Shown here: positions 23,516 through 24,786 of the stretch, piece after piece
Position numbering within the stretch: the stretch's first letter is position 1
How the letters are laid out: every line of letters starts with the position of its first letter
NCBI GenBank assembly: GCA_938040055.1
Contig: CALHWY010000007.1
Coordinates: forward strand, 10,132 to 74,131
DNA: 64,000 nt
Direction of reading: 5' to 3'
Origin: an uncultured Endomicrobiia bacterium
Lineage (GTDB): Bacteria > Elusimicrobiota > Endomicrobiia > Endomicrobiales > Endomicrobiaceae
Position numbers and translations under genes: made by a program
Notes under the pieces: generated by a model
What the model was told of the DNA's origin: nothing
Database searches by the model: none
Seen by the model: the letters and a program-made list of their open reading frames with translations, nothing else

Positions 23516-24550
23516 TTAAGTGTTTTTTTTAGTTGCAGCTTTATAATATTTCTCAAATCTTTCAATATATGTTTTTTGTCCGCAGATTTCAAAACCTCTA
23601 CTAAGCAAATATTTTTTATCGCATATCTTGTTTAAAATATACCTGCTTTTATTTAAATATTCAGACCATCTTTTATAAATTCTTTCTAACGCTTCACAAT
23701 AATAACTCATTTCGCCTATCTCTACAAAAGACAGCACAATGGCAAGCTCTTCTTCTTTTGCATCTTCGATAAATTTATTTCCTTTTGTTTGGAATTGCTT
23801 TTCAAGTTCTTTTATTCTGATACCGCTTATGACACGTTCTTTACTTATGATTTCTTCATATTTTTTTATAAATTCAACCAGATTCTGCATTGTTTTATTT
23901 CTAATATTTTTAAATTTGTTTTCTAAACCAATATTCAGTGAAAATAATCTATGTTCTCTTATTTTATCCAATACATCTGAGAATTGATTACTTGAAAGTT
24001 TATACTTTTTGCAAATTTTTGATTTAGCTTTACTAAGTTTATCGTCCCATTCAGAATAATCCGGAAGCATCTTTGAAATTTCTTCTATTTGGGCTCTTGA
24101 TATCTTTGGGGTAAATGTTCCTGTTTGATATTCAGTAACAATGTTGTAAACAAAATTATAGTAATATTCCAATTTCTTAATTAATTTTTTATATTTTTTA
24201 TGCAAAATGCCAATATGCACTAATTTTTTATCCGAAAGATTGATGTTTTGTTTTATTTTATTACTATAAGTATATCTAAAGGCTGTTGAACGATCATCAA
24301 AATAATAATCTTTAATAAGGGAGTCAAAGCATTTCAGATTGGCACTAAATTCTTTTTTACATCTAGGGTCAACTATAAATAAAGACTTGAGATTGTTTTT
24401 TAATTGTTTGATGCCGTGTAAATTTGAGTTTTCTTTTTTTATATTTCCGTATATTTCATCTTCCCCTATCTTTATTTTATATATATGCAATAGCTGTTTA
24501 ATTATTAACTTAAGATATAGTTCTATTGAATGCCTTGAACAATAAAACAT
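23516..24550 (-). CDS. hypothetical protein, AT-rich, predicted all-alpha (possibly the 3' part of a frameshifted ~423-codon gene)
   Basis: 344-aa ORF rich in Lys/Ile/Tyr/Asn. Its reading frame stays open upstream of the ATG as far as 24595 (GVKSDKIAVDVAVYP-MFYCSRHSIELYLK). A 60-nt line at 23941 has 23% G+C, versus 45% in the adjacent alpha-oxoamine synthase gene. Confidence 0.6.
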   Translation of the reverse strand: MFYCSRHSIELYLKLIIKQLLHIYKIKIGEDEIYGNIKKENSNLHGIKQLKNNLKSLFIVDPRCKKEFSANLKCFDSLIKDYYFDDRSTAFRYTYSNKIKQNINLSDKKLVHIGILHKKYKKLIKKLEYYYNFVYNIVTEYQTGTFTPKISRAQIEEISKMLPDYSEWDDKLSKAKSKICKKYKLSSNQFSDVLDKIREHRLFSLNIGLENKFKNIRNKTMQNLVEFIKKYEEIISKERVISGIRIKELEKQFQTKGNKFIEDAKEEELAIVLSFVEIGEMSYYCEALERIYKRWSEYLNKSRYILNKICDKKYLLSRGFEICGQKTYIERFEKYYKAATKKNT

Positions 24551-24588
24551 AGGATAAACCGCTACATCAACAGCAATTTTATCTGATT

Positions 24589-24786
24589 TTACCCCTCATA
24601 TATAAGCTCATGCGCCTTTTTAAAGCCTTCCGCTATATGAATATCCCTAAATTTGCGAGATGTACCGCAATTGTCTCCAATGCAAGCACGTGTCCAAAAT
24701 TTTTTATCCATAAAGTCTTCGTATCTGAAAGGGTTTAGTTTTGCAATGTTTTTCACATCCATACAGAATTTCCTTTTTTGCTTCAT
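24589..24786 (-). CDS. hypothetical small ORF, probably the 5' part of the downstream gene
   Basis: 65 aa ending ...AHELIYEG. Its stop TAA (24589-24591) sits directly after a G4 run (C4 on the plus strand, 24592-24595). The start lies 8 nt downstream of the SDR stop. Confidence 0.45.
   Translation of the reverse strand: MKQKRKFCMDVKNIAKLNPFRYEDFMDKKFWTRACIGDNCGTSRKFRDIHIAEGFKKAHELIYEG

Follow-up and report, generated by a model that had tools for sequence, protein, structure and literature searches.

A low-GC orphan gene of an uncultured Endomicrobiia bacterium, split by a one-nucleotide frameshift and segregating with intact alleles

Organization of the locus

The stretch of DNA analysed here, referred to as the window, is 64,000 nucleotides long and lies on contig CALHWY010000007.1 (positions 10,132 to 74,131, forward strand) of the assembly GCA_938040055.1, from an uncultured Endomicrobiia bacterium. 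Our subject is an AT-rich orphan gene, located on the minus strand between the genes for a short-chain dehydrogenase/reductase (SDR) and an alpha-oxoamine synthase (AOS), which is divided into two open reading frames (ORFs) at a short run of G residues. The two ORFs are one gene, and its broken state is best read as the recent pseudogenisation of a horizontally acquired gene. The features of the locus are as follows.

24589..24786, minus strand: 5' fragment of the broken gene, a 65-aa ORF that aligns to the N-termini of full-length homologues and is called as a 57-aa ORF in other assemblies
23516..24595, minus strand: 3' part of the broken gene, with an open frame from 24595 and a 344-aa ORF from the ATG at 24550 (24550..23516)
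24592..24595, minus strand: tract of four G residues (G4; CCCC on the plus strand), the frameshift site; in-frame alleles have five G residues (G5) or GGGAG and one haplotype has six (G6), as read from a 15-haplotype alignment
24128..24762, minus strand: HEPN-like N-terminal helical domain (approximate limits), interrupted by the frameshift; assigned from hhalign, sub-threshold PF05168 matches and the Foldseek top 50
23519..24127, minus strand: C-terminal helical domain, whose one resemblance to a known family is the sub-threshold DUF3775 matches of a few distant members
23523..23530, minus strand: A8 tract immediately 5' of the stop codon, varying as A6, A7, A8 or A9 across haplotypes and so altering the C-terminal tail
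24794..25495, minus strand: FabG-like SDR, the upstream flank, full-length in all haplotypes
22280..23437, minus strand: BioF/Kbl-family AOS, the downstream flank, full-length in all haplotypes

The coordinates, strand and lengths of the two ORFs agree with those of the first-pass annotation, made from the letters of this DNA and its ORF list, as does the overlap of the two frames at 24589-24597 only. The 65-aa ORF (24786..24589) ends in ...AHELIYEG-TAA; the PF..ACIGDN motif of the N-terminus and the first helix of the HEPN-like domain lie within it. The 344-aa ORF is in the -1 frame relative to it, and the sequence shared by both frames is GAGGGGTAA (24597..24589, minus strand). All of the motifs RHSIELYLK, HG, FRY, TGTFT..SRAQIEEIS, HRLFSLNIGLE and CGQKTY are kept in the 3' part. 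Translation probably starts at the second ATG, 24762 (MDVKN...), which has AAGGAA 7 nt upstream, and gene calls in other assemblies use the same start; this makes 415 codons (24762..23516, minus strand) the likely length of the intact gene, rather than the roughly 423 first estimated for the joined ORFs.

The G+C content of the 1271-bp locus is 27.9%, whereas windows of that size average 42.8% across the genome (sd 3.5; z = -4.25), and just 0.3% of them are equally low. Over 23350-24550 the G+C fraction is 0.25-0.29, compared with 0.40-0.49 in the flanking SDR and AOS genes. The AT-richness noted at first inspection is thereby borne out at genome scale.

One gene interrupted by a frameshift

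Full-length homologues of 418-481 aa are single ORFs that cover 94-97% of the joined sequence, junction included; those found with the joined sequence itself are 425-468 aa long, and a profile search added about 40. One extra G joins the two frames into ...HELIYEGVKSDKIAVDVAVYPMFYCSRH..., identical to the sequence of intact alleles in near-identical strains. In two haplotypes, L082 and L090, the gene is intact and its 415-aa product shares 96% identity with the joined window sequence; in a third, L088, an intact 437-aa form shares 97%. A congener, genome G005, carries an intact 436-aa copy in the same operon, which reads ...AHLIYEGILSDKIFVDVAVYPMFYCCRHSIEL... and has a G+C content of 25-28%. 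Together the two ORFs make up a single gene of about 415 codons; the earlier proposal that a single added G repairs it is matched by natural G5 alleles and by the single-ORF homologues.

In the window the stop codon follows residue 57 of 415 (...ELIYEG), ahead of the invariant D..VYP..RH..E..K block. Since the lesion cuts a conserved domain short and orthologues elsewhere are intact, the G4 form carried by the window is a loss-of-function allele. The five-G run that codes for Gly in intact strains has lost one G, and translation therefore stops after ...ELIYEG, within the first conserved domain. An origin of G4 from an ancestral GGGAG by deletion of the A was dropped, since nearer strains carry G5.

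Alleles in natural populations

Haplotypes were taken from contigs encoding the 344-aa ORF of the window, its SDR, or a conserved SDR gene 3.3 kb away. The SDR-orphan-AOS layout was recovered from many independent metagenome assemblies, one of which is labelled human oral metagenome; a scan of JGI metagenome contigs with the junction pattern gave no match. In the alignment of 15 haplotypes, the junction reads GGGAG (in frame) in L087, L088, L089 and L002, GGGGG (G5, in frame) in L082, L084 and L090, GGGG (G4, -1) in the window, L081, L085, L086, L035, L037 and L040, and GGGGGG (G6, +1) in L083. The G4 allele (GAGGGGTAA) is present in at least 8 independent assemblies from different samples, the window among them; the others are ERZ26859138, ERZ27262733, ERZ27994523, ERZ989741, ERZ28575154, ERZ28575084 and ERZ28574856. 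At least two distinct upstream haplotype blocks carry it, and mosaicism among the haplotypes is clear.

The junction is one of several places at which the gene is broken. A T has been lost from a (TA)n run in L085, L086, L087 and L089, an A7 run is shortened to A6 in L084, and 5 bp are missing at an A-rich repeat in L001-L006, a lineage that is more distant; in L085 and L086 the gene is frameshifted twice. At least five different frameshifts are found across the haplotypes, all at simple repeats, and 7 of 10 haplotypes are broken by G4, G6, the lost T in (TA)n or A7 to A6. The tract three codons 5' of the stop codon, which varies from A6 to A9, gives three different C-terminal tails; with A7 the ORF is lengthened to 437 aa and almost reaches the AOS start.

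Across the 10 haplotypes, every one of the ten neighbouring genes keeps its full length or nearly so, the exception being one DUF4097 copy called at 206 rather than 212 aa. Listed members of the AOS cluster at 90% identity are all 385 aa long, and lengths in the orphan's cluster run from 56 to 437 aa. Since the same G4 allele recurs in independent assemblies and the neighbours are intact, assembly noise is ruled out and the loss of function is specific to this gene. The G4 allele is thus real, and co-circulates with intact alleles and with several independently broken ones. The dN/dS ratio of the orphan is 0.32-0.61 (0.36 between two intact alleles) against 0.05-0.25 in the flanking genes; constraint is weaker yet present, and the inactivations are therefore recent.

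Acquisition and operon context

Of 122 genomes of the class, three have the gene according to the profile of the family: G000, G005 and, with a weak match, G105. Named relatives come from Clostridium butyricum, C. felsineum, Christensenellales, Sedimentibacter and Anaerotignum, and the other relatives are mostly from Clostridia. The gene order is SDR-KAS-DUF5672-AOS in G004 and bioB-SDR-KAS-AOS, lacking also DUF5672, in G015, both without the orphan, and bioB-SDR-YhcG/DUF1016-orphan-KAS-DUF5672-AOS in G005. The orphan is a horizontally acquired gene inserted between SDR and AOS. The foreign origin suspected at the outset is in keeping with the low G+C content, the presence in so few genomes of the class and the mostly clostridial relatives, and the suspected interruption of an operon with the uninterrupted SDR-KAS-DUF5672-AOS order of relatives. 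DNA identity between G000 and G005 is 69% for the orphan and 66-69% for the flanks, a similarity that would fit one old acquisition.

Comparison with strains lacking the insert was proposed earlier as a way to define its boundaries; G004 and G015 have the operon without the orphan. No target-site duplication is present at the low-GC segment. A target-site duplication or att site was rejected, the sole flanking repeat being an 11-nt match with its second copy inside the SDR coding sequence. This perfect direct repeat, TTCTCCTATAT, lies at 23441-23451 and 24875-24885, on either side of the low-GC segment; one copy is in the ribosome-binding region of AOS and the other within SDR, and the match is probably due to chance.

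In G005 (L022, 689-1096 and 5884-6957) a gene for a YhcG/DUF1016 PDDEXK nuclease is located directly 5' of the intact orphan, inserted in the same operon. No DUF1016 gene was found in the genome of the window.

The operon of the relatives, bioB-SDR-KAS(FabF-like)-DUF5672-AOS, and the best model for AOS, TIGR00858 bioF, point to biotin or pimelate synthesis rather than to a sphingoid-base module. In the genome of the window, KAS (FabF-like) and DUF5672 are on a separate contig, C22 (2338 bp), bounded by dispersed repeats, and bioB is on another (C4:117-1070). The dispersed repeats, 28-82 nt long and 75-93% identical, lie at the ends of C22 (1-82, 2138-2280) and at the ends of C21, C6, C7, C4 and C18; the breaks in the assembly are probably due to them, and the split operon may have been rearranged at these points. 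C22 was considered as an alternative allele of the locus and rejected, as its ends match the dispersed repeats and not SDR or AOS.

Protein family and domain structure

A HMMER scan of 1.84 billion representative proteins places the orphan in a family of 2814 clusters (50% identity) at E<=1e-3, or 324 at E<=1e-30, with members mostly of 370-470 aa. Residues that are invariant or nearly so are D..VYP, R-H, E, K, H, D..GD.FRY, T..R, E, E and CGQ. The AlphaFold2 model of the homologue P0006, built on a 39-sequence alignment, is all-helical with two domains (pLDDT 89, pTM 0.81), in agreement with the all-helical protein expected from the translation. Searches of the PDB by sequence with two family profiles returned chance matches only, and no match to a housekeeping family was found.

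The N-terminal domain was compared by hhalign with 30 bona fide PF05168 (HEPN) proteins from genomes of the class. The comparison gave a probability of 58% and P = 9.6e-5 with three motifs in register, the aligned pairs being aRHxIELxLK/qqaiEKaLKA, tHDixxL/tHdLxxL and FRY(P)/tRYP. As controls, the C-terminal domain gave P 0.27, reversed alignments gave P 0.34-0.35 and the best of 30 block shuffles gave 8.8e-4. PF05168 is also the commonest sub-threshold Pfam match among distant members (4 of 90, E 1e-3 to 5e-2, under the 22-bit cut-off). The window protein itself has no Pfam HEPN match, and a PF05168 search of the genome misses the locus. A separate model of the N-terminal domain has a pLDDT of 84.6; against the PDB it has no Foldseek match at E<=1e-3, with 7ae8, 1jog and 7ae9 in the top 50 at target-normalised TM scores of 0.40-0.46 and non-significant E.

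The N-terminal domain is therefore taken to be a probable, divergent PF05168-type HEPN, with the odds appreciably in favour. Like PF05168 proteins such as the HEPN toxin of the HEPN-MNT module (7AE8/7AE9) and HI0074 (1JOG), it appears to be a helical bundle, and three motifs seem to be shared with them without change of order or register: (R/q)(H/q)xxE(L/K)xLK on helix 2, tHD(i/L)xxL and (F/t)RY(P). The orphan family differs from them in lacking both Rx4-6H and an MNT partner gene, and in having besides an invariant R-H pair on helix 2, a PF..ACVGxNG motif at the N-terminus and a C-terminal domain of about 200 aa. A His at +10 after the R of FRY occurs in distant members and is missing from the subfamily of the window.

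The last 70 or so residues of some distant members match DUF3775 (PF12616) at 25.1 bits against a cut-off of 27. The window's own protein differs in having no such match, DUF3775 is itself without known function, and a search of the literature on it found nothing relevant.

Two proteins, P0046 (L075, from a Sedimentibacter metagenome-assembled genome) and P0050, have the N-terminal half of the family in other company: in one it is fused to DUF1835 and DUF3658, and in the other it is joined, as judged by eye, to a HerA/DUF87-like ATPase C-terminal half. Both fusions may be real domain shuffling or broken genes.

Genomic neighbourhoods and possible role

Neighbourhoods were examined for eight homologues, a small sample; the alignment of the Clostridium group gave three genome loci. 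The contexts contain the following genes.

Context 1: restriction-modification (R-M) system of a PLD nuclease and two methylases; ISL3 transposases
Context 2: caspase-like protein; genes of an integrative and conjugative element (ICE)
Context 3: ABC-three-component (ABC-3C) system (CTD6/MC2/AAA_23); serine recombinase on the other side of the gene
Context 4: Mob_Pre relaxase; AlwI-type R-M system
Context 5: TIR protein
Context 6: HsdR, TIR and an Abi_2 gene
Context 7: MmeI fragment, Fic and DUF3427
Context 8: YhcG PDDEXK nuclease

R-M, TIR, Abi_2 or ABC-3C genes adjoin the homologue or lie near it in six of the eight contexts, and the other two have the caspase-like protein with ICE genes or the YhcG nuclease; several also hold transposase, relaxase or recombinase genes. 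A conserved partner gene, such as an antitoxin or MNT, was rejected, the neighbours of the eight homologues being unrelated to one another. The moderately supported picture is of a family of solo, cytoplasmic, all-helical proteins with, most likely, a divergent PF05168-type HEPN N-terminal domain.

Because homologues keep the company of defence islands and mobile elements, we infer that the family would act in conflict or defence as an effector, most probably a nuclease or an abortive-infection-type protein, which would be regulated by its own C-terminal domain. By this guilt by association the neighbourhoods are consistent with a role in conflict or defence and with a fitness cost that would favour inactivation. 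The suggestion that the gene is defence cargo draws its support only from the neighbourhoods. In PADLOC-DB v2 no match was obtained for the window ORFs or 10 family members, save one chance-level DndC match (E 0.007).

Among known systems there is also a likeness to single-gene abortive-infection HEPN proteins such as Abi_2 (AbiD/AbiF, PF07751), which are likewise solo, cytoplasmic, AT-rich and helical and occur on mobile elements or in defence islands, and one member of the orphan family stands directly beside an Abi_2 gene. A difference is that no PF07751 match was found in the window protein or in 100 family members scanned. This large family, covered by no domain or defence database and with an intact natural allele at hand, is a specific candidate for a hitherto undescribed defence or toxin module encoded by a single gene, on the strength of the all-helical model, the probable atypical HEPN and the defence-island and mobile context.

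Interpretation of the frameshift

A frameshift alone would be ordinary gene decay and unremarkable. Here at least five independent lesions at simple repeats occur beside intact alleles with the neighbours untouched, the pattern expected for costly acquired cargo, and in this uncultured bacterium of the human mouth the locus is a clean natural case of a single gene losing its function again and again. Of the four options first listed for the frameshift, a fresh pseudogene fits best: we put the probability of ordinary recent pseudogenisation of a horizontally acquired gene, the broken allele still segregating, at roughly 0.75. The cost of a conflict or defence effector would explain the repeated inactivation.

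Several observations weigh against this reading. The dN/dS of the orphan is below 1 even between broken alleles, as expected if the inactivations are recent or if the gene is switched rather than lost, and a contingency locus would likewise show a single tract as G4, G5 and G6 on a variety of haplotype backgrounds. As to function, the effector role is drawn from gene context; Pfam, NCBIfam, PHROG and PADLOC have no model above threshold for the window ORFs and 100 family members scanned; and Foldseek finds nothing at E<=1e-3 for the full-length model in PDB and BFVD. Moreover, the R of FRY is nearly invariant in the family and is followed by no His 5-7 residues on, so that the absence of a convincing Rx4-6H motif, already remarked for the window protein, extends across the family.

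The main rival, kept because G4, G5 and G6 all occur, is that the gene is a phase-variable contingency gene whose poly-G tract slips between G4 (OFF), G5 (ON) and G6 (OFF), the population keeping expressing and non-expressing cells of a costly gene. All three tract lengths are found in natural haplotypes, two of them out of frame, and the tract lies inside the coding region, as in known contingency loci. G4 stands on at least two upstream blocks, the sequence is still partly constrained (dN/dS 0.3-0.6), and the second tract (A6-A9) near the stop codon varies too. Known contingency tracts, however, are typically 7 or more nt long; that of the orphan is short, with 4-6 nt (5 when ON), and is interrupted (GGGAG) in other in-frame haplotypes. 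A switch at one tract cannot reverse the lesions of the several haplotypes that are broken elsewhere or twice, irreversible lesions that coexist with it; homologues in the family have no G-tract at this position; and recombination, in haplotypes that are mosaic, can spread a single G4 mutation without repeated slippage. We regard a switch of this kind as improbable. A wider proposal, also doubtful, is that the family is a new single-gene defence or abortive-infection system with a divergent HEPN that uses R-H/E/K/H/R-Y in place of Rx4-6H, its cost in this oral bacterium being managed by a short poly-G/poly-A contingency switch; if true, such a switch would explain the coexistence of ON and OFF alleles across people.

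Recent pseudogenisation also fares better than a programmed or leaky -1 ribosomal frameshift at G_GGG_UAA, in which the P-site tRNA-Gly would re-pair one base back while the stop codon is decoded slowly. The -1 codon is GGG as well, so re-pairing would be perfect, and the product would be the ancestral sequence; a low-level slip of this type is mechanistically conceivable. It finds no support, as the site has no X_XXY_YYZ heptamer, shuffled sequences fold as well as the 131 nt downstream of it (z = -0.04), homologues and sister strains are in frame, and the site arose through the loss of a base from an in-frame tract. We consider it very unlikely.

The lesion sits in a homopolymer, as a sequencing or assembly error in a gene that is intact in the real genome would also do. 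Such an error, listed among the options at first, is refuted by the recurrence of the allele in at least 8 independent assemblies: the identical G4 is present in at least 7 besides the window, and these come from different studies and assemblers. For other samples, assemblies of this kind give G5, G6 or GGGAG, and such indels are seen in 0 of 10 neighbouring genes; what chance is left to this explanation is slight. Equally implausible is a pair of functional genes, a small N-terminal protein and a 344-aa protein from the ATG at 24550: both ORFs are open and the larger retains most conserved motifs, but no homologue is split at this point, the split leaves the large piece without helix 1 or the invariant D..VYP segment, there is no Shine-Dalgarno-like sequence ahead of that ATG, and the coordinates of the split coincide with a 1-nt change in tract length.

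Other low-GC segments

A second low-GC island of the window (about 26-27% G+C) extends over 44836-47905 on the minus strand. Read from its translations only, it looks like a restriction-modification module, with a D12-class (DPPY) methyltransferase of 333 aa, a candidate endonuclease of 378 aa and an N6/N4-type methyltransferase of 309 aa. Other segments at 26-27% G+C, among the lowest of the genome, are C7:87600-92200, outside the window, and C25:1400-2400, and are presumably foreign cargo.

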